Part shown: positions 1-12,029 of the stretch, piece by piece
How positions within the stretch are numbered: the stretch's first letter is position 1
Layout of the letters: the number at the start of each line of letters is the position of its first letter
Assembly: GCA_038231275.1 (NCBI GenBank)
Contig: JBBRLQ010000066.1
Coordinates: forward strand, 1-12,029
Source of the DNA: Polyangiales bacterium
GTDB lineage: Bacteria; Myxococcota_A; Polyangia; Polyangiales; Polyangiaceae
Length of the DNA: 12,029 nt
Direction: 5' to 3'
Translations under genes and position numbers: made by a program
Notes under the pieces: generated by a model
Database searches by the model: none
Told to the model about the DNA's origin: nothing
Seen by the model: the letters and a program-made list of their open reading frames with translations, nothing else

Positions 1-1
1 G

Positions 2-292
2 CTCGCGGCCGACGACGCGACGCTTGCGGCGACGGTCGCCGCCCTCGGCTCGCGCCTCCAGAACAGCCGCGGCGGGGCGTACACCGTCGCGCCGGGCGCG
101 TCGGACTACGGCGTGTGGTGGATCCGGACGTCGCTCGGCACCCCGATTTTCCAGCTCGCCGGCAACCTTCCCGGCGGCGTGACCCTCTTCAAGGCGGCGC
201 TCGTCGTGACGAACGCGTTCGGCGTGGCCCAGGCCGGGAACCTCTTCCGCGTCGACAATCCCGGGCTGGGCGGCGTCTGGACCCTCACGTGA
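2..292 (+). CDS. Partial (5'-truncated) phage virion structural/appendage protein
   Basis: Frame 2 is open from the window edge to TGA at 290-292 (not in ORF track): LAADDATLAATVAALGSRLQNSRGGAYTVAPGASDYGVWWIRTSLGTPIFQLAGNLPGGVTLFKAALVVTNAFGVAQAGNLFRVDNPGLGGVWTLT. GC3-biased codons. The Y-x-x-W...G-T-P-x-F...GG...VTN-x-x-G...R-x-DN-x-x-LG pattern resembles a beta-rich domain I recall in phage tail-associated proteins. Confidence 0.7.
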   Translation, partial: LAADDATLAATVAALGSRLQNSRGGAYTVAPGASDYGVWWIRTSLGTPIFQLAGNLPGGVTLFKAALVVTNAFGVAQAGNLFRVDNPGLGGVWTLT

Positions 293-294
293 GC

Positions 295-303
295 GAAGGA
301 GGG
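295..303 (+). promoter_or_regulatory. Shine-Dalgarno site for the 311 gene
   Basis: GAAGGAGGG ends 7 nt upstream of ATG 311. Confidence 0.8.
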
Positions 304-310
304 ATCCACC

Positions 311-1750
311 ATGCCTAGCGCCGTCGCCGGAAGTACCTACGTACCGGGCACCATCAAACCGAACGCCGGGCAAGAGTCCGTCCCGACGCACGCCGCGCAG
401 ACGGGCAAGGGGGGGCACCGCTCGAATTTCTCGGCGGCGGAATGGCTCGCGCGTGCGACGACAATCCCGGTCGGCTTGCGCGAGCTCGGCATGACGGTCG
501 CCGTAGAGAACGGCGACGGCACGCGAACGAAGTACGAACTGGACGCGATGCCCGACGCGTGGATCGTCGCGACCTCCGGATCGGGCGGCGGCTCGGCGGC
601 CGTCACGTCGACGACGGCGAGCTTCGTTCAGCCGAACAGCGGCAACCTCGTCACGATCCCCGTGCTGAGCTCCGCGGCGGCCGGCGTCGGGCAATGGCTC
701 CATGTGGAGGGGGGCGGCGAGTATCTCGTCGCCGCGATCGTCGACTGGACGCACGTCCAGATCCAGAACAGCGCGCTCCTCGGCAACGCCGTCTTTGGGA
801 CGACGATCCCGACCGGGCGCCGCGTGACGACAAGCGGATCGCCCGGCGTCGCCGGAGATCCGGGCGCCACGGGTCCGGCCGGCGCCACGGGTCCGGCCGG
901 CGTCGCCGGGGGCGCCGGGCCGACCGGCGCCGCAGGGCCGACTGGCGCCACGGGTCCGGCCGGGCCGACCGGAAACACCGGAGCGGCGGGAGCGGCCGGC
1001 GTCGCCGGAGCGGCCGGCGCAACGGGCCCGGTCGGCGCCGTCGGCGCGACGGGTCCCGCCGGAGCGGCGGGAGCGGCCGGCGTCGCTGGAGCGGCGGGCG
1101 CGGTCGGCGCCACGGGCCCGGCCGGGCAGGCGGCCTATACGACGCTCGGCGCCGCGTTCACACAGCCGGCGCCGGGCGCGACGGTCAACGCCACGGTCGG
1201 ATCGTCGGCATGGCTCGCCGTCGGCTCGCCGGTCTTCGTCGCCGGCGGCGGGCTCTATACCGTGACGGCGCTCCCGGACGCTACGCACGCGACGATCCGA
1301 AACGAAGGGGCGGCGCTGAACGCGGCGACGGGGGCGACCGTCGCAAGCGGCGCGAAGATGATCGTCAGCGGCTCGCCGAGCGGCACGATCACGCTCGCGC
1401 AGTCTTTCACGATCCTGGGCACGACGACGGCGCCACAGACGCTCGCGACCTCCGTAGCGCTCCCGACGCCGGGCATGGCCGACGTGCTCGCCACGGTTCG
1501 GATCCGGGACACGAATGACGCGACCGGCGGACCGTCCGTCTACCGGATCGATCTCGTAGGCACGTACCGGCGCAGCACTCCCGACGGCGTCGTCAGCGTG
1601 ATCGGGCCGACGCCGAACGGCCAAGGGGGGCCGCTCCTTAACGTGACCGCGCAGCTCTCGCCGGTCGCCGGCGCCGTCGCCGTCATCGTCACCAACTCCA
1701 CCGGCGTCGACCTGGTCGTACACGTGACGCTGGAAGCTGTGGTGATCTGA
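311..1750 (+). CDS. Collagen-like fibre/spike protein (479 aa)
   Basis: Strong RBS. N-terminal PTH...GKGGHR...IP..LR..GM.V.V motif typical of phage fibre-associated proteins. 33 uninterrupted Gly-X-Y triplets flanked by two copies of a ~78-aa domain. Beta-rich C-terminal domain. Confidence 0.85.
836..1132 (+). repeat. Collagen Gly-X-Y repeat region (33 triplets)
   Basis: [15 protein letters not shown] ... GPA GQA. Exact DNA repeats GGCGCCACGGGTCCGGCC at 863-880, 881-898 and 944-961, and a 26-bp repeat at 980-1005 and 1061-1086. Confidence 0.95.
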
Positions 1751-3600
1751 TGGCCACGGCGGCCAGCGAGCGCCGGCGGCTCTTCACGGTGCCGGATCCG
1801 TCGACGGCGCCCGACCTCCTCGGCTGGTGGCAAGTCGAGCGCGGCACGATCACGGCGTCGGGCGCCGTGACTGGGCTCACGGATCTGAAAGGGAACGCCG
1901 CCCACAACGCTCAACTTATCAGCGGCGTCGACGCGCCGGCGCGCGTGGCGAGCGCCGCGCTCGGCGGGAAAGCGGCGCTCCGGTACTCGCGATCGACCGC
2001 GGGCTGTGGTCTCTACTTTCCGCTGCCGTGGACGCTGCCGTTCACGTGCTACATCGCGATGGCCTTCGCGGCGAACGTCGGGATCTACCAGATATTTTTC
2101 GACACGCCGACGCAGCGCCCACGGCTCTACACCTATCCCGGCGGGCCGCCCGATGGCCTGGTGATCAATGGCGGAAATCAGGTAGTTCCCGGCGTGAACA
2201 TGGGGACGAGCGGGCTCGCGCTCGCGCAAGTCTGGCGCGCGACCGGCCAGCTCACGAACGTTGCCAAGTCGAGCGAGACGCCAGACTACGAAGGCGACCT
2301 CGGAGCGACGACGACGAGCGGCGTCGGCTTCAACTTCGGGATCAACGGCGGCAACACGCCTGTGTACGCGTTCGCGGGAGACATGGCCGAGATCCTGTGG
2401 TTCGGCGTGGCGCACGCGAAGGAAGAGCGGCGGCGCTGGCTGAACTACCTAAACTCGCGCTACTTCATGCCGATCGACAGCGATCCGCCGGGCTCGATCT
2501 ATCGCGTGAAGATGAATCGCAGCGTATACGCGGACAACGTCGCGGCGACCGTCCCGGTAAGCGCATGCCTCACGGCAACGGGCGCGCTTCGATTGCAGAT
2601 GCGCGGAACGGTCGCGGGCGCGTCGTACAATACCCGCCTCGAGTCGCTGATCGGCCAGTGGAACGCCGGCGCCGGGCCGGCGGCGTACCGTCGCGGCTCG
2701 CCGGCCGGCGTCGCCGCCGTCGTCGGCTCGGTCGAGAACCTCGCCGCCGCGAACATGGCTAGCGTGTCGGGCGAAGAGGCTGAGCTCTTCGTGGCGCTCG
2801 GCGGCGGCATGGCGCCGGAGGTGGCGCACCGCGACGGGTCCGGGCTCGGCTGGCTACGGGCCGCCATGACAAGCGCGGCGACGTCTCCCGCCATCGTGGG
2901 CGCGACCGGAAATCTCCTCGTAGGTGCCGACGGCGTGCACAACTCGCTTAACCGAATCCTGCGCGAAGTCGTGGCGTACCGCGACGCCGCGTATCCCCCC
3001 GGGCTCCCGGACTACGCGGCGCCGCAAAATACCATCGTATCCGGGACGCTCGCTCTTTTTGGCAACACCTACTTCGGCAACGAGCTCGACGGCGGTCTCG
3101 CGCTCTACACGTCAGGGCGCATCGCGAAGGATCACGCACTGCCGCGCACGTACGCCGTCGTCGCGGCTCTGATCTCCGCGATTGACGCGACGGCGCTCGA
3201 CGCCACGCCCGTATCGGGCGGCGTCAATACCCTGTGCGTCTACCTCGGCCAACATGACATCGTCGTCGGCTCGACTCCGGCGACGGCGTATGCCGCGCTC
3301 AAAACGTTTCTCACGGCGAGACGCGCGAACGGATGGGGCAAAATCATCGTGGGCACCTTGATCTCGGACGCCGTGTTAACGCGCGCGAACGCGGACGCGT
3401 TCAACGCACTCTTGCGTCAGTCTGAGTTCGTACCGGCGTACGCCGACGCGCTCGCAGACTTCGCGGCCGACGCGACGATCGGCGCCGTCAACTACTCGAG
3501 CACCGCGGCTAATTTCCCGACGACGACGTCGCTCTCCGGGCTCGGCGCGCGCCTCTTTTCTGCGGTGCTTGCGCCGGTCGTTAGCGGGTTGCTCGCATGA
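1750..3600 (+). CDS. Putative receptor-binding/spike protein: N-terminal LamG/concanavalin-A-like domain and C-terminal degenerate SGNH/GDSL-hydrolase-like domain (616 aa)
   Basis: TGATG coupling to the upstream gene. N-terminal W...V..LTDLKGN..H...GGK.AL...GDMAEILWF...ER....YL..RY matches the LamG-like pattern. C-terminal LFGNT...YLGQHD...RRANGW.KIIVGT...FNALLR...ADALADFAAD..IG follows SGNH block order. Confidence 0.75.
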   Translation: MATAASERRRLFTVPDPSTAPDLLGWWQVERGTITASGAVTGLTDLKGNAAHNAQLISGVDAPARVASAALGGKAALRYSRSTAGCGLYFPLPWTLPFTCYIAMAFAANVGIYQIFFDTPTQRPRLYTYPGGPPDGLVINGGNQVVPGVNMGTSGLALAQVWRATGQLTNVAKSSETPDYEGDLGATTTSGVGFNFGINGGNTPVYAFAGDMAEILWFGVAHAKEERRRWLNYLNSRYFMPIDSDPPGSIYRVKMNRSVYADNVAATVPVSACLTATGALRLQMRGTVAGASYNTRLESLIGQWNAGAGPAAYRRGSPAGVAAVVGSVENLAAANMASVSGEEAELFVALGGGMAPEVAHRDGSGLGWLRAAMTSAATSPAIVGATGNLLVGADGVHNSLNRILREVVAYRDAAYPPGLPDYAAPQNTIVSGTLALFGNTYFGNELDGGLALYTSGRIAKDHALPRTYAVVAALISAIDATALDATPVSGGVNTLCVYLGQHDIVVGSTPATAYAALKTFLTARRANGWGKIIVGTLISDAVLTRANADAFNALLRQSEFVPAYADALADFAADATIGAVNYSSTAANFPTTTSLSGLGARLFSAVLAPVVSGLLA

Positions 3601-3791
3601 CGGCGGCGGCGCTTTGCTTCTGGCCGCCGCCGGCCGGCGCCGGGTGTACGCGGCCCGCGGTGCGCTTGCGCGCCGACCGCGCCGGGCGCGCGTGGCTCCC
3701 GGCGTGCGCCGAGCATTGCGCCGACGCCGCACCATCGGATCTGATGCCAGAAGGCGCTTGGCTACTGCCGCCGGAGGACCCCGCACCATGA
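3597..3791 (+). CDS. Small Cys/His-containing hypothetical protein (64 aa)
   Basis: ATGA overlaps at both ends (3597-3600 and 3788-3791). C-x9-C ... C-x2-H-C could bind metal. Confidence 0.55.
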   Translation: MTAAALCFWPPPAGAGCTRPAVRLRADRAGRAWLPACAEHCADAAPSDLMPEGAWLLPPEDPAP

Positions 3792-4543
3792 CAAACCGCC
3801 GCGAAGTGAAGATCGGATTTTCGGAGGTCCCGGCCGGGCGCGGTCAGCTCGGCGTCGCGACGTTCGACGTCGGCGGCGATGCCGCGAAGGCGCTCACCGT
3901 GGGGATCTCCGGGCGCGTGCGGCCCTGGTCGACCGACGGCGGCGGGCACTTCGAGACGAGCTCGACGCCGAACCGGCGGATCCGGGCGTGGCTCGAGTAT
4001 GGCGGCGGCGCGTCGACCAACCGGCGCGAAGTTCCGGTCGGGAAGCGTTTCGGCGTCGTCGCTTCAGGCGTGCGCGTCTTCGTCGAGGTCTGGACGAACG
4101 AGCGCGGCGCGTCGACGCCGGCCGCCGCCGGCGACTCGCTCGGCGAAGTTGAGGTCTACATCGGCGAGGGGGTCGCCAACGCCGCCTACCCGTCGCTGTG
4201 GTTCGACGCCGAGACGAACACGAGCGGCGACGCGCGCGACGGGAAGACGCTGAACGACGGCGGGCTCTGGTCGGTCGATCCGCTCGTGCTCCTCAGTGTC
4301 GTCGGGGTGAACGGCGGAACGGACAAACGCTATCTCCAAGTCTTCGACAGCTCGACGGTCGGAAACAATCTCGTCTTCTCTGTCCCCGTCGCCGCGGGTG
4401 ATCCCTTCGCGATCGATCTCTCCAACTCCGGCGGCCGGGCGTTCGCGCACGGCATCTCGTGGGCCGTATCGTCGACGCCTGGGAGCTACACCGCGGACTA
4501 CTCCGCGGCGTTCCAGGTCGCCGCAGAGGTCCTGTTCCTATGA
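3788..4543 (+). CDS. Two-domain beta-strand-rich virion protein (251 aa, starts MTNRREVKIG)
   Basis: Start reassigned from 3569 to ATG 3788, which has GGAGGA upstream and an ATGA overlap. Alternating hydrophobic beta pattern. C-terminal N-G-G-x3-RYLQVFD...VFSVPVAAG...F-x-x-GISWAVSST resembles small phage beta-sandwich proteins. Confidence 0.7.
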   Translation: MTNRREVKIGFSEVPAGRGQLGVATFDVGGDAAKALTVGISGRVRPWSTDGGGHFETSSTPNRRIRAWLEYGGGASTNRREVPVGKRFGVVASGVRVFVEVWTNERGASTPAAAGDSLGEVEVYIGEGVANAAYPSLWFDAETNTSGDARDGKTLNDGGLWSVDPLVLLSVVGVNGGTDKRYLQVFDSSTVGNNLVFSVPVAAGDPFAIDLSNSGGRAFAHGISWAVSSTPGSYTADYSAAFQVAAEVLFL

Positions 4544-5022
4544 TCGCGCCGCCGCCGCGCCCGCCGCCGCGTCCCGCGCCGTACCTCGAGCCCGACGCGA
4601 CGGCCCTCGTCGAAGTGCCGCCCGTGATCGCGAGCGTCCCGCCGCCGCCGGGCGTTCCGACGATGAGCGTCCGCGTCCCGTCGCTCACGCCGGGCGGCGC
4701 GCCGGGTCTGCTCACCGGACCGCCCGGAACACAGCTCACGATCCCGGGCCTGCCGCCGTCGCTCGCGCGATGGGGACGCGCGCACGCGTTCCCCCTTCTG
4801 GTGCTCGCCGTCGTGGCGGGCCTGACGTGGTTCGACCGCCTGCCCGCGGGCGTGCTCACGGCGCTCTTCTCGCTCCTCGTCGGCGTGCAGATCGAGCGGC
4901 CGCGCGTCGCGGGCGAGGGGCCGATCGTCCTCGCGACGGTGCCGCCGATCTCCTCGAGCTCCTCGAGCTCCTCGAGCTCGCCGCCCGGCGCGGGACCGCC
5001 GGCACCGGGGGTCCTCGCATGA
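4540..5022 (+). CDS. Proline-rich protein with two predicted TM helices; holin-like or virion membrane protein (160 aa)
   Basis: Start reassigned to ATG 4540 (ATGA overlap). Hydrophobic segments AFPLLVLAVVAGLTWF and LPAGVLTALFSLLVGVQI. Lies directly upstream of, and is coupled to, the transglycosylase gene. Confidence 0.65.
   Translation: MIAPPPRPPPRPAPYLEPDATALVEVPPVIASVPPPPGVPTMSVRVPSLTPGGAPGLLTGPPGTQLTIPGLPPSLARWGRAHAFPLLVLAVVAGLTWFDRLPAGVLTALFSLLVGVQIERPRVAGEGPIVLATVPPISSSSSSSSSSPPGAGPPAPGVLA
4951..4980 (+). repeat. 9-bp tandem repeat (TCCTCGAGC x3 + TCG) encoding poly-Ser
   Basis: Read directly from the sequence; in-frame unit length. Confidence 0.9.
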
Positions 5023-5798
5023 ATCCGATCACGCCGCGCGCGTTCCAGATCCTCACAAACGACGCCGTTGCCCTCGGCGTGAACCCGCACGACTGGGCGC
5101 TGCTCATCTACAGCGAGAGCACGTGGAACCCGCGCGCGAAGAACGCCGCCGGCTACTACGGGCTCAATCAGATCGGCCCCAACGAGCTCCGCGCCGTCGG
5201 GTGGACGGGCGGCGTCGACGCGTGGCTCGCAACGTCAATCGAGGGGCAGCTTCCCTACGTGACGAGGTTCTTCCGCTCGAAAATAACCGGCATCCCTGGC
5301 GCCATCGCGGGCGCGAGCGCCGGGCACATGTACGCGGCGAATTTCCTCCCGGCGCGCGTGCGTCCCCTGCCCGGATCCTCGATCGCGTCGGGGCGCACGA
5401 CGGCGACGGCCGACGACATCGATTACCCGCTCACCGTCCGTGGGGAGGGGCACAACTTCTACGAGCAAAACGCCGTCTTCGACGCGGACGGCAAGGGCAC
5501 GATCACGATCCGGGACATGGGCAACACGCTCCGCCGTCGCATGGCCCAAAATCCGAACGACACGCGCACCTTGATCGCCGGCGTCAACGCGGCGCTGGCG
5601 ACGCTCCGGATCAACTCACCGGAGCGCCGCGGGCCGACGCTCCCCGACGAGCGCGCGCACACGGTCACGATCGGAGAGGTGACGATCCGCGCCGGCGAGG
5701 GCGATCCGACCGCGGGCGGCAACGCGGGCAAGATCGTCGTCGGCGTGGTGCTTGCGGTCGCCGGGGGGATCGCCGCGAAGATGCTGTGGAAGGGGTGA
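5019..5798 (+). CDS. Lytic transglycosylase (SLT/lysozyme-like fold) with EF-hand-like loop and C-terminal TM anchor (259 aa)
   Basis: Start reassigned to ATG 5019 (ATGA overlap). Catalytic motif LIYSESTWNPRAKN, GLNQ motif, QLPYV, YAANFLPA, YEQNAVFDADGKGTITIRD. Terminal hydrophobic helix IVVGVVLAVAGGIAAKMLW. Confidence 0.85.
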   Translation: MNPITPRAFQILTNDAVALGVNPHDWALLIYSESTWNPRAKNAAGYYGLNQIGPNELRAVGWTGGVDAWLATSIEGQLPYVTRFFRSKITGIPGAIAGASAGHMYAANFLPARVRPLPGSSIASGRTTATADDIDYPLTVRGEGHNFYEQNAVFDADGKGTITIRDMGNTLRRRMAQNPNDTRTLIAGVNAALATLRINSPERRGPTLPDERAHTVTIGEVTIRAGEGDPTAGGNAGKIVVGVVLAVAGGIAAKMLWKG

Positions 5799-5802
5799 CG
5801 CG

Positions 5803-6069
5803 ATGCCGATGCGCCGGAAGGAGGAAACACAGGCGCTCAACCGGATGCGCGCAAAGCTCATGGCGCCCGACGATCCAGACGCCGGCGACCTCTTGAACGA
5901 GATCAACAACCTCGCGCAGCGGATCGCGCTGCAACCCGCCGACGAGCTCGAGTCCGATCCGGACGTCGCGCGCCGGCTCACGCTCCTTACGGTCCGCTTT
6001 GAACACTGGCGCCGCACGCAGCAGATGCGCGTGACGCCGCTCCCCCGACGAAAGGACGCCGCGAAATGA
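5803..6069 (+). CDS. Hypothetical helical protein (88 aa, starts MPMRRKEETQ)
   Basis: ATG 5803 is preceded by GGAAGGGG and lies 4 nt after the upstream stop. ATGA overlap with the next gene. Natural-looking charged helical sequence. Confidence 0.7.
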   Translation: MPMRRKEETQALNRMRAKLMAPDDPDAGDLLNEINNLAQRIALQPADELESDPDVARRLTLLTVRFEHWRRTQQMRVTPLPRRKDAAK

Positions 6070-6260
6070 AGCTGTGGATCGCTGTGATGGTGCTCGCCGC
6101 GCTCCCCGCGTGCGCGAGCGCGCCGACGCCAGCGCAGGAGTCGGCGGTGCGCGACGAGGGCAAGGAGCAAGCGGCGTGCGTCGCGAAGTACGAGACGAAG
6201 GAAGCGATCGACGCGTGCCGAAACCGCGTGCGCGCCTCGTTTGGAAGGATGCCGCGATGA
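6066..6260 (+). CDS. Small lipoprotein (64 aa), possibly spanin-like or an entry/exclusion protein
   Basis: MK, hydrophobic LWIAVMVLAA, lipobox-like LPA-C. Two further Cys residues could form a disulfide. Upstream AAAGGA. ATGA overlaps at both ends. Confidence 0.75.
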   Translation: MKLWIAVMVLAALPACASAPTPAQESAVRDEGKEQAACVAKYETKEAIDACRNRVRASFGRMPR

Positions 6261-6484
6261 GCGTCTCAGAAGACCTCCAGAAGATGGCGGCGGCGATCGC
6301 GCCGACCGTCGCGCCGATCATTCGCACCGTCGCCCTCGAGCTCCTCGGCATCGTGGCGAAGCTCATCACGAGCCGCGACACCGCGCGCGCGCTCCTCGAT
6401 GCGCAGTACGTCGCGATGGAGGCGGCGGTAGACGAACTCGAGGCGGCGAAGCTCGCCGCGCGCGCCGCCCTCAAGGCGCCGTGA
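6257..6484 (+). CDS. Small amphipathic/coiled-coil protein (75 aa, starts MSVSEDLQK)
   Basis: Start reassigned to ATG 6257 (ATGA overlap; GGAAGGA upstream). Moderately hydrophobic N-half and heptad-like C-half. Confidence 0.7.
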   Translation: MSVSEDLQKMAAAIAPTVAPIIRTVALELLGIVAKLITSRDTARALLDAQYVAMEAAVDELEAAKLAARAALKAP

Positions 6485-6660
6485 ACCGCGGCGCGCTCGG
6501 CTCGTCGGCGCTCGGCTCCGCGGTCGCCGCGGCCGTGACGCCCGACCCGTTTGGGCAAGGCATCCTCGCGGCGCTGGCGCTCGTCGGCGCGTTCCTGTTC
6601 CTCCGCGCCGCATGGCGCACGGCTCGCGCCCCCACCGAAGGAGATCAAAACCATGGCTAA
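6481..6660 (+). CDS. Small single-TM membrane protein (59 aa, starts MNRGALGSS)
   Basis: GTGA overlap. TM segment GILAALALVGAFLFL followed by basic RAAWRTAR. Confidence 0.6.
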   Translation: MNRGALGSSALGSAVAAAVTPDPFGQGILAALALVGAFLFLRAAWRTARAPTEGDQNHG

Positions 6661-6799
6661 GAAGAAGAACGCCGCGATCGAGATGCTCACCAACCCCTTG
6701 ACGCTGTTCATGGGGGCGCTCGTCGGCGGCGGCGTGCTCCTCGCCAAAGCGAACGCGAAGAAGGCGCCGCCGGCGCCGCCGGCGCCGCCGGGACGGTGA
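6653..6799 (+). CDS. Small single-TM membrane protein (48 aa, starts MAKKKNAAIEM)
   Basis: AAGGAG at 6638-6643 precedes ATG 6653. Basic N-terminus, TM segment LTLFMGALVGGGVLLA, APP x3 tail encoded by GCGCCGCCG x3 (6764-6790). Confidence 0.7.
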   Translation: MAKKKNAAIEMLTNPLTLFMGALVGGGVLLAKANAKKAPPAPPAPPGR

Positions 6800-6802
6800 C
6801 CT

Positions 6803-7525
6803 GTGCTCTCCGTCTCCGAGGGGAAGAAGCAGCGCCGCGCACTTCTGCGGGACGCTGACCGAGCACAGCGCGCCGACCTCAAGAGAAAGCACGACGCGAT
6901 CCGATCCGAAATCCGGCGCGTGAAGGGCCAGCACAAAGAGACCCTTCGGGCCGTCGCCGGCGCATGCCGCGCCGCGCGCCTCGAGCTCGTCGCGAAGGCG
7001 AAGGAGCTCCGCGCGCGTGCGCTCGCGGAGCTTCGCGAGGCAACGAAGGCGAAGAAGCTCGAGGCGCGGCACCACTGCCGGGCGCGCAAGGCGGACCATC
7101 GAACGAGGACGACAAGCGAGGTGGATCGCCAGCGGGCGCAGATCCGCGCGGATCGGGAGTTCCGCGCCGAGCTTCAGCGGATCGAAGCGTGGAACAGGAA
7201 GAAGGCGCCGAAAGTCGCGAGCGCCGCGGTCCGGCGTCTCGAGTCCGACGACGCGGTGCGCTCGAACATCCCGCCGGAGCTCGTGCCGCTCTTTGAACGC
7301 GTGCGCACGCGGATCAAGGGCACGCCGCGCAAGACGCGCACCGAAGCATTCCTAGAGTACGCGCAAGAGAACGAGCGCGAGGTGCTCGAGGTGCTCGAGG
7401 AAGGCGGGGAACGTCTCGTGCGCGAGCTCGAGGCGCGCGAGCGCAAGGTTGCCAGGGCGCGCGCCTCGACGCCGCCGCCGCGGCGCCGCTTCACCGCCGC
7501 CGAGCTCGCGGCGACGCCGTTCTAA
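6803..7525 (+). CDS. Highly basic helical protein with ESDD..RSNIPPEL.PLFE...RTEAFL.YA motif (240 aa), possibly DNA-binding
   Basis: Arg/Lys-rich coiled-coil N-terminal part, globular-looking C-terminal motif, ends ...LAATPF. GC3-biased codons. GTG start is uncertain. Confidence 0.75.
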   Translation: MLSVSEGKKQRRALLRDADRAQRADLKRKHDAIRSEIRRVKGQHKETLRAVAGACRAARLELVAKAKELRARALAELREATKAKKLEARHHCRARKADHRTRTTSEVDRQRAQIRADREFRAELQRIEAWNRKKAPKVASAAVRRLESDDAVRSNIPPELVPLFERVRTRIKGTPRKTRTEAFLEYAQENEREVLEVLEEGGERLVRELEARERKVARARASTPPPRRRFTAAELAATPF

Positions 7526-7530
7526 CCGCC

Positions 7531-7731
7531 ATGACGCCCGACGATCTCCGAGACGTGCTCGTCTATCAGTGCGTGAACGACCGGCCGACGATCACCGCCA
7601 GCGGGATCGCGCGCGTGCTCCCCGGCTTCACGGTCGCGCAGGTGGAAGCGTCGATCGCGCGCCTCCAGGTCGACGAGCTCGTCGCGGAAGACGGCGGCGC
7701 CGGGCGATGGGCGATCACGCCGCCGAAGTGA
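7531..7731 (+). CDS. Small winged-helix DNA-binding protein (66 aa)
   Basis: Helix-TITASGIARVL-TVAQVEASIARL...LV...GRWAIT fits the wHTH pattern with a wing hairpin. Confidence 0.65.
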   Translation: MTPDDLRDVLVYQCVNDRPTITASGIARVLPGFTVAQVEASIARLQVDELVAEDGGAGRWAITPPK

Positions 7732-7751
7732 ACCGCGCGAGACGCGATGGA

Positions 7752-7790
7752 GATCCGCGGCACGCGTGAAAGCGCGTGCGCCGCGGGATC
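7752..7790 (+). other. Intergenic stem-loop with GAAA tetraloop
   Basis: GATCCGCGG-CACGCGT-GAAA-GCGCGTG-CG-CCGCGGGATC: long imperfect stem capped by a GNRA loop, in one of the few intergenic gaps. Confidence 0.5.
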
Positions 7791-7811
7791 GCGGCGACTA
7801 CGACGCGCGGC

Positions 7812-7967
7812 ATGCCGTCGTTTTCCCAAGGAGTGGGCGCGCGCGTGCGCGCCCTGATCGCGCGGCTCATCGCCGCCGACATCGCACGCCTTGAACGCCC
7901 CGCGCTCGAGGCGAAGCGCGCGCGCGCCGCGGCGCGGGCGGAGCGTGACGCCGGGCGGCGTCCGTGA
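7812..7967 (+). CDS. Small hypothetical protein (start uncertain: ATG 7812 or GTG 7845)
   Basis: AAGGAG at 7828-7833 precedes GTG 7845. The stop overlaps the next start (GTGA). Amphipathic RALIARLIAADIARLE. Confidence 0.4.
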   Translation: MPSFSQGVGARVRALIARLIAADIARLERPALEAKRARAAARAERDAGRRP

Positions 7968-8203
7968 ACGCGCCGCCGTTCCGGTACTCGAAGGCGCTCG
8001 AGCGTCACGCGATTTGCTCGGCGTGCTGGCGTGCGCGCGCGGCGCGCCAGCGGCAACCGCTCCGCGAGCCTGTGCGCGTGAACGGCGCCGGGATCGATGC
8101 GTGTTGCTTCTGCGGCGTGTTCTCCACGTCGGGGATCTACGTGCGCGAGTGCAGCGACCCGACGAAGCTCGACGCGGCGACGATGTGCCGGGGACACGCG
8201 TGA
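7964..8203 (+). CDS. Small zinc-finger-like phage protein (79 aa)
   Basis: HAICSACW...EPVR...CCFCG...SGIYVR (CxxC and CCxC pairs). GTGA overlaps at both ends. Confidence 0.7.
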   Translation: MNAPPFRYSKALERHAICSACWRARAARQRQPLREPVRVNGAGIDACCFCGVFSTSGIYVRECSDPTKLDAATMCRGHA

Positions 8204-8499
8204 AGACGGAGTCTGTGCGTCGGCTCCTCGAGCGGCTCGGGTATCTCGGCGGACTGTTTCGCTCCGAGACGTCGCTCGGCGAGAGGGCCGCGCTCACGCG
8301 CGCGAGCGCGCACGGGCTTGTCCTAACCGAGCCGTGCCCCGTCCACGGGTGGGTAGCGACGCTCACGGGCGCGGGGCCGCGCCAGGCTCGCCTGGCGCCT
8401 GGGCAAGCTCCCCGCCTTCCGTGCGTTGCTGCGTGGAATGAGGCCGCGGCCGAAACCGAGCGGTCGCGGCCACGCGGATCGGCGATCACGCGACCCTGA
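8200..8499 (+). CDS. Hypothetical protein, possibly winged-helix (99 aa, starts MKTESVRRLLERL)
   Basis: Start reassigned to GTG 8200 (GTGA overlap). AALTRA...GLV...ATLTGAG resembles the MarR/wHTH wing motif GLV...LT..G. Confidence 0.5.
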   Translation: MKTESVRRLLERLGYLGGLFRSETSLGERAALTRASAHGLVLTEPCPVHGWVATLTGAGPRQARLAPGQAPRLPCVAAWNEAAAETERSRPRGSAITRP

Positions 8500-8545
8500 A
8501 AAAACGCGTGCGGCGCGATCGCCGTTTGAGTAGGGCTTCCGGCCA

Positions 8546-8683
8546 ATGGGGAAGTACCACGGGCGCGACGTCGTGATTGAACAGTGCGGCGACATGATTT
8601 CGCCGGAAGCTCGCGAGCGACTCGAGCGTCTCGAGACGCGCGATCGCGCGGGCGAGCTCCTTCGCGCTCGCTTCCGCAGGTGA
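8546..8683 (+). CDS. Small hypothetical protein (45 aa)
   Basis: Not in ORF track: MGKYHGRDVVIEQCGDMISPEARERLERLETRDRAGELLRARFRR. Its TGA overlaps the GTG of the recombinase. Confidence 0.5.
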   Translation: MGKYHGRDVVIEQCGDMISPEARERLERLETRDRAGELLRARFRR

Positions 8684-9378
8684 GTCCCCGCCGAGCTCCT
8701 CGAGCGGCGATCTATGTCCGCTATTCCACGCGCGACCAGAATCCGCGCGCGCAGCTCCGCGCCGTGCGCGAGCTCGTCGCCCGCCGCGGATGGGAGCTCG
8801 TCGAGACGTACCAGGAGGCGAAGCACTACAGCGGGCGCGACGATCGCCGGCCCGAGCTTCTTCGCATGCTCGCCGACGCGAAGCGCCGCCGCTTCGACGT
8901 GCTCGCCTTCTACTCGCTCTCGCGCCTCGCCCGATCGCTGAAGCTGAGTCTCTTCGTGTTCGAGGATCTCGCGACGTTCGGCGTCGACGTCGTGAGCGTC
9001 ACGGAGGCGATCGACCTCACGACGGCGAGCGGCCGGATGATGCGCGACATGCTCGCGGTGCTCGCGTCGTTCGAGCGCGAGCTCATCGTCGAAAGGACGC
9101 TGAACGGAATGCAAGAGGCTCGAGCGCGCGGCGTAAAATTCGGGCGTCCGCGAACAAAGTTCGACCTCGCGCGCGCCCTCGAGCTTCGCGCGGAGGGCGT
9201 TTCTGCCGTGGAAATCGCAAGTCAACTGAAAGTCGCGCGAACGACGCTGCGACGAGCTCTTGACGAGGGCGATGCAGCGGCGGGAGGCTCCCCGGTTGCG
9301 TCGCCCACAAAAAAGAGGCGGCGTCCCCCCGTGAAGAAGAACGCCGCCAACCGAGCGAAAGGCCACCGACTAAAGTGA
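8680..9378 (+). CDS. Small serine recombinase, resolvase/invertase family (232 aa)
   Basis: AAIYVRYST (catalytic Ser), Q...Q, SG...RPEL..ML, SRLARSL, TTASGRMM..MLAVLASFERELIVERT..G...ARARG...GRP, and a C-terminal HTH (GVSAVEIASQLKVARTTLRRAL). Start reassigned to GTG 8680. Confidence 0.93.
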   Translation: MSPRRAPRAAIYVRYSTRDQNPRAQLRAVRELVARRGWELVETYQEAKHYSGRDDRRPELLRMLADAKRRRFDVLAFYSLSRLARSLKLSLFVFEDLATFGVDVVSVTEAIDLTTASGRMMRDMLAVLASFERELIVERTLNGMQEARARGVKFGRPRTKFDLARALELRAEGVSAVEIASQLKVARTTLRRALDEGDAAAGGSPVASPTKKRRRPPVKKNAANRAKGHRLK

Positions 9379-9560
9379 ATTTCGCCGCGGCAAAGCCGAA
9401 CGTAGACGCGACGCCATGCGCGCACAATCGGTTCCGCGCGACGAGTCGCGCCGGCGTCGTCGCGCGGTGGACGTGCGAATGCGGCGCGGTGACGTTCACC
9501 GGGGAGCACGCGCCGGATCCTGCGGACCTCCGCCCGCGCCGGCGCAAGGTCGCCGCATGA
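9375..9560 (+). CDS. Small zinc-ribbon-like protein (61 aa)
   Basis: C-x-H ... W-x-C-x-C-G pattern. Overlaps at both ends. Confidence 0.6.
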   Translation: MNFAAAKPNVDATPCAHNRFRATSRAGVVARWTCECGAVTFTGEHAPDPADLRPRRRKVAA

Positions 9561-9742
9561 CGCGCGATGATGAGGGGGTCTTTGCGCCGTCGCCGCCGGG
9601 GCCGCGCGACGAGGCGCTCGCCGCGGGCGAGTCACTCGGGCGCCTGATCGAAATCCTCGAGCCCATCGCGCCGCGCTACCGCCGCCGCGTGCTCGCCGCC
9701 GCGGCGGCATGGTTCGGCGACGGGGCCGGGGGGACGACATGA
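9557..9742 (+). CDS. Small hypothetical protein (61 aa, starts MTRDDEGVF)
   Basis: Start reassigned to ATG 9557 (ATGA overlap). Helical LIEILEPI....RRRVLAAA. Confidence 0.6.
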   Translation: MTRDDEGVFAPSPPGPRDEALAAGESLGRLIEILEPIAPRYRRRVLAAAAAWFGDGAGGTT

Positions 9743-10137
9743 CATCGCCGCTCGATGCGCTCGCGAGCTCGCCCGCGCCCCCGACGCGCCGCCATTGCGT
9801 GCTCACGCTCGCGTGCGTGACCGGCGCCCGCTGCGCGTGCGCGTGCGACGCGTGCGCGGCCGTTCGCGCGGAGCTCCTCAGTGTTCCGCCGCCGTCGGCG
9901 CGCGACCCGTGGGTCACGAGCGCGCCGGAGAACGACGTTCCCGCGCAGGTCGCCAGCATCGCGCACCGCCTCGAGGCGCTCGAGCGCGCGGTCGCTCTGG
10001 CGCGTGGTCAGGTGTTGGGCGCGCTTGGCGCCGAACTCGCCGACGTCGCCGAGCTCGCCGCCGCGATCCGGGTCGACCTGGCGGAGCTCGCGCGCCTCGC
10101 GACGCTCGGTCACCAGCTCGAGGCGATGCGACCGTGA
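9739..10137 (+). CDS. Cys-cluster plus coiled-coil protein (132 aa, starts MTSPLDALA)
   Basis: ATG 9739 (ATGA overlap). HC...C...CACACDAC motif followed by heptad-like helices. Confidence 0.65.
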   Translation: MTSPLDALASSPAPPTRRHCVLTLACVTGARCACACDACAAVRAELLSVPPPSARDPWVTSAPENDVPAQVASIAHRLEALERAVALARGQVLGALGAELADVAELAAAIRVDLAELARLATLGHQLEAMRP

Positions 10138-10253
10138 CGGCGCGAACGTCCTCCCCGCAGCGGTCGGAGCACGCAATCTGTGAGTGCGCGCACGCGTTCG
10201 GAAACCATCGGGCGCGTGAGCCGCACGCGTGCATGTCGACGAAGTGCGGGTGA
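10134..10253 (+). CDS. Tiny Zn-finger protein (39 aa, MTARTSSPQRSEHAICECAHAFGNHRAREPHACMSTKCG)
   Basis: GTGA overlaps at both ends. C-x-C-x-H-x4-H ... C-x4-C motif seen in small viral proteins. Confidence 0.55.
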   Translation: MTARTSSPQRSEHAICECAHAFGNHRAREPHACMSTKCG

Positions 10254-10431
10254 ACGTGCCGCTCAAGCCGATGGCTGCGCCTCCTGCGTCCGGCACGTGC
10301 GACGTGTGCGGGAAGGAGTCGCGCTCGTGGTGCCAGGCGTGCCGCGCATTCGTCTGCTGGACGCACCCAATGCTGCTCGACCGGCGCCACGTTCGCGGGG
10401 AGCACGCGAAGCGATGACGGCGCGAACGTCC
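10135..10431 (+). repeat. 17-bp direct repeat TGACGGCGCGAACGTCC at two gene junctions (10135-10151 and 10415-10431)
   Basis: Exact match read from the sequence. Each copy contains the upstream TGA and encodes the start of MTARTS. Confidence 0.85.
10250..10417 (+). CDS. Small B-box/AN1-like zinc-finger protein (55 aa)
   Basis: Start reassigned to GTG 10250. C-x2-C-x7-C-x2-C-x4-C-x2-H-x7-H. Confidence 0.65.
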   Translation: MNVPLKPMAAPPASGTCDVCGKESRSWCQACRAFVCWTHPMLLDRRHVRGEHAKR

Positions 10432-10680
10432 CCGCCGCTCCGCCGCTGCGCGAAGTGCCACGCGTGGCGCGCGCCCGACGAGCTCGTCGACGTGCCGGTC
10501 GGCCCGGGGCCGGACCCCGCGGCGCGCGAACGGTGCCGCCGCGGCGAAGCGTACCTGTCGACGTCGGTCGCCATCTGCCGCGCGTGCGCCTTCGGCGACG
10601 AGCTCGAGGAAGAGTCACGGACCACGCAACCCGCCGGAGGGGATCCCCCCGGCGCCACATCAAGAGAGCCGATGAAATGA
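10414..10680 (+). CDS. Zinc-finger protein (88 aa, starts MTARTSPPLRRCAKC)
   Basis: Start reassigned to ATG 10414 (ATGA overlap). CAKC ... CRAC pairs. Confidence 0.65.
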   Translation: MTARTSPPLRRCAKCHAWRAPDELVDVPVGPGPDPAARERCRRGEAYLSTSVAICRACAFGDELEEESRTTQPAGGDPPGATSREPMK

Positions 10681-10838
10681 CATCGCAAAAGAACGGTGCG
10701 CCGACCCTGCCAGGGGCCGACGACACCAACGGCCGAAGCCGCACCACGACAGGTACGCAAGGCGTAGGACGCGGATCGCGGGCGCGCAAGGACTCAAACG
10801 ACACGCGCTCACCTGCACGTGCATGGGGGCAAAGTTGA
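10677..10838 (+). CDS. Small low-complexity hypothetical protein (53 aa, starts MTSQKNGAP)
   Basis: ATGA overlap upstream and TTGA overlap downstream. No recognisable domain. Confidence 0.4.
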   Translation: MTSQKNGAPTLPGADDTNGRSRTTTGTQGVGRGSRARKDSNDTRSPARAWGQS

Positions 10839-12028
10839 ACGCCGGCGCCCCGCTGGTGGACGCCTACCGGGACCGCTTCGACGGCGTTCCCCTGCCCGAC
10901 GGCGTCGAGCTCGACGAGCTCCTCGCGCTCGCGCGCGCGGAACGCCGGCGCACCGTCGCTGCCGCGCGGCTCGAGGCGCTCGGCGGCGAGCCGCGCCGCC
11001 AGCGGGCGCCGCGTCGACCGGTCGATCTGAAGCTCTGGAAGCTCACGCGCGTGAAGATCGCGCCCGTCGTCGAGCGCTACGCGCGGAAGGGCAACGGCAA
11101 GGGCGGCCGCGGCCTCCCCGCGATCCTCTCACCGCGCTGCGCGCACCTGTTCCAGTACGTCATCGCGAACGTCGACCTCCTGACAGGCGAGTACCACTCG
11201 ACGCGGGAGAAGACGGCGGAGGGCATGAACGTCGCGGAGCGGACTGCGCAGCGGGCGGCGGCCGACGTCGTCGTCCAGGCGGGGGGCCTCCTCGAGCGCA
11301 TCGACTGCCCGGCGTCGACGTTCTCGTTCCGGGTGCCGGACCACCTACGGTCGCTCGACGCGATCGGCGAGCACCTCTACCAGGCCGCGCGCGAGGCGGC
11401 GCTGCCCGGCAGGGGGGGAGACATCCAAGCTCGGAACGGGGCGGCGACGGCACCGTCGGAAGTGATGGTTTCGGTCTGGGATGTCTCCCCTACTCCTCTT
11501 GATCCGATCCCTGAGTCCCCGGCGTCTGCGCCGCCGGGGACTCTCTCGCCACCTGCCACGCCGTCCGAGCCTGGGAAGCGCGTTCCGCGGCGGGAGGAAA
11601 AGTGTCTGGACGTCGCAAGCTCCGTCGGCGCTGCGACGTCGCCCGACCTGAACCGCCGCCCCGTCGTGGATCGCGGTGCGACCGCGCCAGTGGAAAACCC
11701 GACGGATTCAATTCCCGTTGGGGTCGCCAGCAGCAGCCGCGCAGCGGCGCGGGACGAGCGGGAGTCGGCGGTGCCGGCTCCGCCGGCGAGACTCCCGACG
11801 GCTCCGCCGGGAATCGGACGGGAGTCACGAGGGGGCGAGAGCACGCGGGATGGCGCGCCTCAGCGCCCCGTGGCGGGCTCGGCGCGCAAGGAACGGACCG
11901 GAGGGACCCCCCAGACCGCCGGACGCGTCCAGGCGCCGCCTAGCGCCGCCCAGGGCGGGCCGCGCCCGGTCTTCGCGCGCGCCGCCGGCTTCGACCGGGA
12001 CACGTTCGCCATCGCCTGGGCGTTCAGC
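10835..12028 (+). CDS. Partial (3'-truncated) winged-helix replication-initiator-like protein (HTH_36 / lambda O-like architecture)
   Basis: Not in ORF track because there is no stop in the window. Frame is open from TTG 10835 (TTGA overlap) to the end: MNAGAPLVDAYRDRFDG...LSPRCAHLFQYVIANVDLLTGEYHSTREKTAEGMNVAERTAQRAAADVVVQAGGLLERID...FRVP, then a long Pro/Ser/Ala-rich linker, then ...FDRDTFAIAWAFS. Confidence 0.7.
   Translation, partial: MNAGAPLVDAYRDRFDGVPLPDGVELDELLALARAERRRTVAAARLEALGGEPRRQRAPRRPVDLKLWKLTRVKIAPVVERYARKGNGKGGRGLPAILSPRCAHLFQYVIANVDLLTGEYHSTREKTAEGMNVAERTAQRAAADVVVQAGGLLERIDCPASTFSFRVPDHLRSLDAIGEHLYQAAREAALPGRGGDIQARNGAATAPSEVMVSVWDVSPTPLDPIPESPASAPPGTLSPPATPSEPGKRVPRREEKCLDVASSVGAATSPDLNRRPVVDRGATAPVENPTDSIPVGVASSSRAAARDERESAVPAPPARLPTAPPGIGRESRGGESTRDGAPQRPVAGSARKERTGGTPQTAGRVQAPPSAAQGGPRPVFARAAGFDRDTFAIAWAFS
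11415..11543. repeat. Inverted-repeat cluster inside the initiator gene; candidate replication origin
   Basis: GGGGAGACATCC (11415-11426) / GGATGTCTCCCC (11479-11490) is a perfect 12-bp IR around a central CGACGG-CA-CCGTCG (11445-11458). GAGTCCCCGGCG (11513-11524) / CGCCGGGGACTC (11532-11543) is a perfect 12-bp hairpin with a 7-nt loop. Confidence 0.7.
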
Positions 12029-12029
12029 C

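Follow-up and report, generated by a model that had tools for sequence, protein, structure and literature searches.

A putative myxobacterial provirus with a predicted single-jelly-roll protein and no detected head-tail or packaging genes

The stretch of DNA analyzed here (the window; 12,029 nucleotides, positions 1 to 12,029 of the forward strand of contig JBBRLQ010000066.1, assembly GCA_038231275.1) comes from a Polyangiales bacterium and is an entire contig, C66, of a 9.3-Mb genome. It continues to the left on contig C78, whose end is the first 118 bp of the window (an exact 118-bp overlap), and the C78/C66 join is spanned by a Logan contig of run X1, possibly the source sample. Because Logan contigs extend 439 bp beyond the left end and 2651 bp beyond the right end of the assembled element, the element is at least 20.3 kb long and is not closed. 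C78 carries a divergent helix-turn-helix (HTH) gene fragment, gene A (142 amino acids, aa), gene B (276 aa) and a gene for a peptidoglycan-binding protein with a PG_binding_1 match and an N-terminal hydrophobic segment; 3' of the latter are genes for a 380-aa hydrophobic protein, two transmembrane (TM) proteins and a Cys-motif protein, and then the start of the window's first gene. Gene B lies 3.6 kb upstream of the window. A third contig, C93, is 95.8% identical to the left end of C78 over 190 bp, codes for a fusion of an HTH with the C-terminal portion of core gene I and may be the continuation of the window's element or a sister copy. The window is the distal, surface-and-entry half of a roughly 20-kb mobile element, likely an integrating provirus. 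A first-pass annotation of the window had proposed a possible undescribed tailless, membrane-containing virus lineage, perhaps of myxobacteria, and had named the flanking contig as the place to look for a jelly-roll capsid gene and an FtsK/HerA ATPase; the proposal gains support from B, a predicted single jelly roll (SJR) on the overlapping contig, and no FtsK/HerA ATPase was found there.

The C-terminal domain of B (the last ~120 residues) is modeled by AlphaFold2 as an eight-stranded sandwich with a predicted local distance difference test score (pLDDT) of 92.5 and is predicted to be an SJR. Its top row in the VIA structural comparison is 6h82_b of HHIV-2 (Z 8.3, root mean square deviation (rmsd) 3.1, 109 residues aligned), which by its residue range corresponds to the VP9 penton in the available text of PMC6414509. 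Other rows include SPV1 6oj0_A (Z 8.1, rmsd 3.7, 116 residues aligned, 7% identity; SPV1 Z 7.5 in a wide search), the STIV turret (7.7) and HCIV-1 6h9c_Z (7.5), and internal-membrane SJR viruses crowd the top of the list. By Foldseek, B has no PDB match at E ≤ 0.001, and its best BFVD rows are uncharacterized proteins of uncultured viruses. At the sequence level, B has 442 relatives (E ≤ 0.001) among 50%-identity representatives; 105 aligned members gave no capsid-family match in Pfam or PHROGs, their profile has no PDB sequence match, and no match was found in INPHARED or PLSDB. Of 348 pattern hits in metagenomes, 340 were matched by B. Two to four tandem B-like domains, some of them behind an N-terminal TM segment, are found in P0003, P0004, P0005, P0039 and other proteins.

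B also carries a variable N-terminal extension. The N-termini of B relatives are enriched in the motif [IV]xG[ADGE] (92 vs. 13.2 ± 3.6 in shuffles), a pattern picked after seeing the B data; 18 further B proteins have 13 vs. 1.8 ± 1.3, the motif being carried by 9 of the 18. A ParB control is likewise enriched (10 vs. 2.4), and protein E is not. In the E family, the helix after a conserved Gly is modestly amphipathic (median at the 68th percentile; 25 of 40 matched). The repeated acidic I/V-x-G motifs of B relatives, like the conserved Gly of the E family, are reminiscent of adenovirus-type processing sites. That TG might be a maturation protease for B is a weak lead; the window's own element has no TG, and the N-terminus of its B has no [IV]xG[ADGE] motif.

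For comparison of gene content, 1114 called proteins from 58 sequences, the longer of ~200 loci, were clustered with no dereplication. The gene order that recurs in 49 B loci is a divergent HTH gene, A, B, usually TG, M, E, F, a muralytic enzyme, small TM proteins, I and K. Six-frame counts in these 49 loci are 48 for A, 47 for TG, 43 for M, 38 for E, 36 for T, 35 for F or F2, 35 for I, 33 for the muralytic enzyme and 25 for K, and many of the absences fall at cut loci. F, SLT and K are the family members found in the window, while A, B and T24 are found in C78. The genome of the window, G000, also has a complete-looking sister element (C59, 2367-15407) that follows the canonical order in full, with TG, a LysM protein and DUF3560. 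Protein A consists of a charged helix and three Gly-rich hydrophobic helices and has no meaningful PDB match. The enzyme in the muralytic slot varies, being an SLT, a different lysozyme-like enzyme, a glucosaminidase-like one or, in L086, an M23 peptidase; a C-terminal hydrophobic segment is present in 4 of 5 SLT-family, 12 of 13 Mur-family and none of 11 glucosaminidase-like Mur2 proteins. In local alignments of nine pairs of related loci, the ratio of nonsynonymous to synonymous substitution rates (dN/dS) is below 0.5 for every core gene and 0.01-0.25 for B, which has the lowest or tied lowest value in five pairs and ranks first or second among the core genes in constraint in seven. By this measure, the core genes are demonstrably under purifying selection.

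B is distributed patchily: it occurs in 22 of 401 genomes of the order, a tally that takes in G000 and the unpublished genome G331, which supports no further claim here, and in 4 of 401 genomes across the phylum, all from the same order (8 candidates scored per genome). Of the named host genome records with B, 29 of 32 are myxobacterial. Several copies may share a genome (four B loci in G410, at least three related elements in G000). The flanks of the loci vary and include integrases and ParA/ParB, and among 28 scanned regions, 3 have a recombinase that adjoins a tRNA gene. No convincing case of flanking direct repeats was found in 35 regions, and no terminal repeats in the 10 loci tested; tRNA copies are at most 10 bp.

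None of the 24 window proteins scanned has a tape-measure, baseplate, tail-tube, portal, terminase or major-head family match in Pfam or PHROG, which bears out the earlier remark that tape-measure, baseplate and tail-tube genes are missing from the window; all "tail" PHROG matches among them are due to the collagen repeat or the SLT domain. With PHROGs, 105 element or flank proteins gave no terminase, portal or major-head match and four of four C65 tailed-phage controls matched; one M23 domain matched tape-measure and minor-head profiles, through that domain only. Pfam detected no terminase on any B-bearing contig in 21 B-bearing genomes, with models that are insensitive, since they missed the known C65 terminase, whereas phrog_2, which detected that terminase, found none on a B-bearing contig in five records. 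A Walker-A pattern gave 32 matches among the 1114 called proteins, none marking a core ATPase family, and Pox_A32, applied to assembled sequence, gave 0 of 5 (control, 1 of 14). A 389-aa reverse-strand gene with a Walker-A-like motif, outside the core families, lies upstream of one B locus (L176, 2986-4155). No polymerase match was found among the proteins scanned with Pfam and PHROG, the ends of the element being outside the assembly, and ~3.1 kb of known extension lies outside the head-tail scans. The HK97 capsid, portal, terminase and tape-measure genes that the first-pass annotation had named as speaking against its proposal were thus found neither in the element nor in its relatives.

The features of the window are listed in Table 1. 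Its first gene has no family match in Pfam or PHROG scans. Just upstream of window position 1 (L001, 5141-5251), two divergent run X1 contigs converge at the C78/C66 join at about double depth, which suggests allelic variation in this 266-aa surface gene. The collagen fibre noticed earlier is confirmed: the triplets are uninterrupted (residues 176-274; Pfam Collagen E 5e-13), the two flanking domains of ~75 aa are 42% identical, and the product is likely a trimeric spike. The "lectin-like" label of the 616-aa protein gained no support from the libraries: neither the whole protein nor any of its three parts has a Pfam, PHROG or PDB match, and its LamG-like and SGNH-like look is a putative motif resemblance. 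Its one relative is P0154 (36% identity), whose longest contig measures 44,101 bp, a length also recorded for P0155. The collagen and 616-aa genes have no cluster partner among the proteins of the other 57 sequences compared and, by this comparison, are accessory.

Table 1. Features of the window (strand and coordinates as in the 12,029-nucleotide stretch; ORF, open reading frame; HMM, hidden Markov model; iE, independent E-value; KD, Kyte-Doolittle hydropathy).
Coordinates	Strand	Feature	Remarks
2..292	+	3' end of ~266-aa beta-rich gene	Starts on C78 (4736); likely variable surface protein
311..1750	+	Collagen-stalk fibre	Accessory; two related domains flank 33 G-X-Y triplets
1750..3600	+	616-aa protein	Candidate head for receptor binding; accessory
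3597..3791	+	64-aa ORF	Start and stop overlap both neighbours; weak PHROG 2526 match, E 0.0035
3788..4543	+	Core gene F, two tandem beta-sandwich (jelly-roll-like) domains	Family HMM iE 2.6e-18
4540..5022	+	Pro-rich protein with central hydrophobic stretch (KD 1.66)	Outside core families; holin-like or virion membrane protein
5019..5798	+	SLT lytic transglycosylase, C-terminal membrane anchor	Occupies the family's interchangeable muralytic slot after F
5803..6069	+	Small soluble protein	KD19 maximum -0.07
6066..6260	+	Small predicted lipoprotein (spanin-like or virion membrane)	Signal peptide ending in Cys16
6257-6484, 6481-6660, 6653-6799	+	Three small hydrophobic ORFs	KD 1.71, 1.99, 1.56 (last borderline)
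6803..7525	+	Core gene K, Arg/Lys-rich	Last of module; family HMM iE 5.5e-51
8680..9378	+	Serine recombinase (resolvase/invertase type) with HTH	PF00239 E 7e-38; PHROG 125 E 2.5e-48
10823..12029	+	Open-ended ORF	Probably replication-initiator-like, by position and look

Core gene F, previously noted as beta-rich, is indeed modeled as all-beta, with two tandem beta-sandwich domains (pLDDT 76.7, predicted template modeling score (pTM) 0.59). Its best VIA rows reach Z 7.0-7.4 and none reaches Z 8; SPV1 chain Z aligns over the C-terminal domain (Z 7.2). P0155 is a relative of F, and in one ESM Atlas cluster 11% of the members carry a XepA label. F is likely a vertex or turret protein. The SLT enzyme with its C-terminal anchor also stands: its Pfam SLT E-value, 1.6e-4, is just over the cut-off, Glu33 belongs to an ES motif, and residues ~239-257 form a hydrophobic segment (KD19 2.14). 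The "run of tiny membrane proteins" holds for five hydrophobic ORFs in 4540-6799, one of them borderline, but not for the soluble product of 5803-6069. The predicted lipoprotein has a weak Rz-like PHROG match (E 0.042). K has no Pfam match above the cut-off, is present in 5 of 61 relatives and is a candidate genome-condensing protein. A small protein (window 7531-7731; L030 993-1199) has a 42% homolog on C138, the other genes of which look tailed-phage. The open-ended ORF at the right end has no Pfam or PHROG match, and no sigma-70-like promoter was found in the window.

We propose that the element is probably a provirus of an undescribed lineage of tailless icosahedral viruses with a single-jelly-roll capsid, an internal membrane and no packaging ATPase. 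In such a virus, the HTH regulator would control the operon and the recombinase would excise the element; A and the small TM proteins would shape a host-derived membrane vesicle, which B would tile as the major capsid protein (MCP), with F at the vertices. Rather than being pumped in, the genome would be condensed and enclosed while the particle assembles, a task perhaps carried out by the basic K. Host binding would fall to the variable spikes, which in this element are the 266-aa, collagen and 616-aa proteins, and the peptidoglycan-binding M and the membrane-anchored SLT would breach the cell wall from the side of the virion, in the manner of PRD1 P7. It is also possible, as a serious minority view, that 4540-6799 doubles as the lysis block of the tailless element.

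Several observations weigh against this proposal. The structural rows of B are level with two cellular folds, GOLD (8.2) and PHM (8.0), and with a baseplate protein of a tailed phage (7.9), they have 3-8% sequence identity, and a Z near 8 is in the background zone; the fold therefore does not prove a capsid role for B. The best row of B is, moreover, a penton and not an MCP. Gene I, present in 35 of the 49 loci, could conceal an unrecognized motor or scaffold, and to this are added the insensitivity of the Pfam terminase models and the at least 439 bp on the left and 2651 bp on the right of the element that lie outside the assembled sequence. Neither a convincing attachment site or terminal repeat nor a circular form, expression or a particle was seen. 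The loci were chosen by the presence of B and are kin, not independent. The B alignment found only one IMG/VR record, no IMG/VR match was obtained with K, the B domain or P0154, and the ESM Atlas clusters for A and F are mostly "Uroviricota" among the few members with a phylum label.

Part of this evidence would also fit a membrane-bounded particle with no icosahedral shell, an enveloped vesicle or pleomorphic virion in which A would be the major structural protein and B and F surface knobs. A precedes B in 48 of the 49 loci and is nearly as constrained, the best row of B is a penton, some proteins have B-like domains as tandem copies or after TM segments, and no ATPase was found. We regard such a particle as an unlikely though serious contender, given that 49 of 51 B members lack a TM segment and that B ranks first or second in constraint in most pairs of loci and has soluble SJR proteins of internal-membrane icosahedral viruses at the top of its structural list. 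It is distinctly unlikely that the element is a helper-dependent satellite, or a host-domesticated device for secretion or predation, in which jelly-roll and muralytic parts are reused and the element's own genome is not packaged. The core with no motor or polymerase, the several copies per genome and the tailed prophages that co-occur on other contigs would suit such a role, but the patchy distribution, confined to one order in the phylum-wide scan, and the variable flanks with integrases and ParA/ParB argue against it, as does a 194-kb IMG/VR virus record (G413) with A, B and TG and no terminase, sheath, A32 or Gp23 match (the Gp23 control gave no match either). In this record (L088), A, B and TG are at 9282-14723, further B-like domains occur elsewhere and similar genes are found in L103; it is possibly a giant member of the lineage.

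Tail fibres followed by the lysis cassette of a tailed phage, the alternative that the first-pass annotation had kept, are very improbable and this reading is largely refuted. The collagen gene does match tail-fibre PHROGs (E down to 3e-23), the order of a 2-TM-like protein, SLT and a lipoprotein resembles that of holin, endolysin and spanin, and the same genome has a contractile-tail prophage on C65/C70 with terminase, portal, major head and sheath. However, the 5.2 kb upstream of the window consist of A, B, M-like and T genes and no tail genes, C65/C70 has no end overlap with C66/C78, and those relatives of the element that are bounded by host genes have no head-tail hallmarks. The C65/C70 prophage (L003/L004), which is unlinked to the window, carries IS605-type transposase genes. 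Extremely improbable, finally, is a true PRD1-like tectivirus or other virus with a double-jelly-roll (DJR) MCP, for which F would be the candidate. F does have two beta-sandwich domains, both of which are covered in alignments with PNGase F (Z 7.0, 201 residues aligned) and PHM, cellular DJR folds according to the accessible part of PMC8812541, and the STIV coat protein is at Foldseek rank 43; yet F varies more than B and sits next to the spikes in the middle of the operon, its model is weak by pTM, and neither an A32/P9 ATPase nor a protein-primed polymerase was found. The top 50 VIA rows of F contain no DJR MCP of PRD1, PM2 or FLiP, an absence that does not exclude such a fold.

A second element type, represented by L026 with L002 (C67+C71), L027, L028, L031, L036, L037 and also C73, has K, TG, E or F and TM-anchored muralytic genes in common with the B loci and no recognizable B, in place of which stand beta proteins of 274-330 aa and 158-214 aa. 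In four-sequence profiles, those of C67, L031, L036 and L037 have no similarity to B, and the larger one has no PDB match. In L036 and L037 an ATPase gene, AAA-type by Pfam in L036, lies on the opposite strand. The second type could be a two-capsid-protein version.

To the extent of the open-access titles and listings searched, no description of the B family was found, and supplements of preprints might list such elements. A 2026 CRISPR survey of myxobacterial viruses proposes six new groups, all Caudoviricetes, and its available text has no mention of "jelly" or "tailless" (10.64898/2026.09.14.751636). More broadly, we advance, with slightly less than an even chance, the view that the elements form a widespread lineage of bacterial dsDNA viruses with one vertical SJR capsid protein, an internal membrane and no motor, ranging from 10-20-kb myxobacterial proviruses to the 194-kb record and forming a bacterial counterpart of the proposed portoglobovirus-like ancestor of Singelaviria. 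If so, a bacterial family of SPV1-like design with hundreds of divergent members would make the scenario of a portoglobovirus-like ancestor testable by structure and phylogeny, and would expose a blind spot, B matching nothing in Pfam, PHROGs, PDB sequences, INPHARED or PLSDB. The B profile is a ready marker for locating further family members.

Compared with known viruses, the element has no HK97 MCP, portal or large terminase match by which Caudoviricetes are recognized. Its first-noticed likeness was to the Tectiviridae, as PRD1 and PR772 carry a spike with a collagen stalk (P5) and a membrane-anchored transglycosylase (P7/P14) (PMC6750898, in the text available). This PRD1-like logic holds in part, for the collagen spike and the anchored SLT. 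Tectiviridae are further marked by a protein-primed polymerase and a linear genome with inverted terminal repeats; in the element, no DJR MCP, P9 ATPase or protein-primed polymerase was found, B is single-domain, the collagen stalk has 33 triplets compared with residues 124-140 in P5 and the collagen gene is accessory here. The ATPase-less DJR viruses (FLiP and the Odin group) are likewise tailless and have no packaging ATPase, as far as the accessible text of PMC5894146 goes, but unlike the element they have a DJR MCP and small genomes, and no link to B was found. With the Singelaviria/Helvetiavirae (Sphaerolipoviridae HHIV-2, HCIV-1 and SH1; Thermus phage P23-77), the element shares a vertical-SJR-type fold and many membrane proteins; in addition to HHIV-2 VP9, B aligns to the 229-aa (Z 7.5) and 172-aa (6.4) chains of HCIV-1 and to P23-77 VP17 (6.0). 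These viruses have two SJR MCPs and an FtsK-HerA ATPase (PMC8812541, part available), whereas each module here has one B, with no profile similarity to F, and no ATPase was found. Since an ATPase of the FtsK-HerA/A32/P9 type, expected of Tectiviridae and Helvetiavirae, was not found in the assembled sequence and the host differs from that of Portogloboviridae, we place the element in none of these three taxa. The Portogloboviridae would come closer to it in design: SPV1 has a single SJR MCP, an internal membrane and a genome of ~20 kb (PMC8459092), and no packaging ATPase (PMC8812541, same portion), features that the element would share under the proposed reading. A coiled nucleoprotein core is a further mark of Portogloboviridae. 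B aligns to the 178-aa multi-chain protein of 6oj0 and the second domain of F to chain Z, which from their chain lengths would be VP4 and VP10. The host of SPV1 is archaeal (Sulfolobales), unlike the mostly myxobacterial hosts of B, B has no detectable sequence similarity to Portogloboviridae, and the muralytic and peptidoglycan-binding genes, the recombinases and the variable N-terminal extension of B set the element apart. By analogy, the element likely functions more like the archaeal portogloboviruses than like PRD1.

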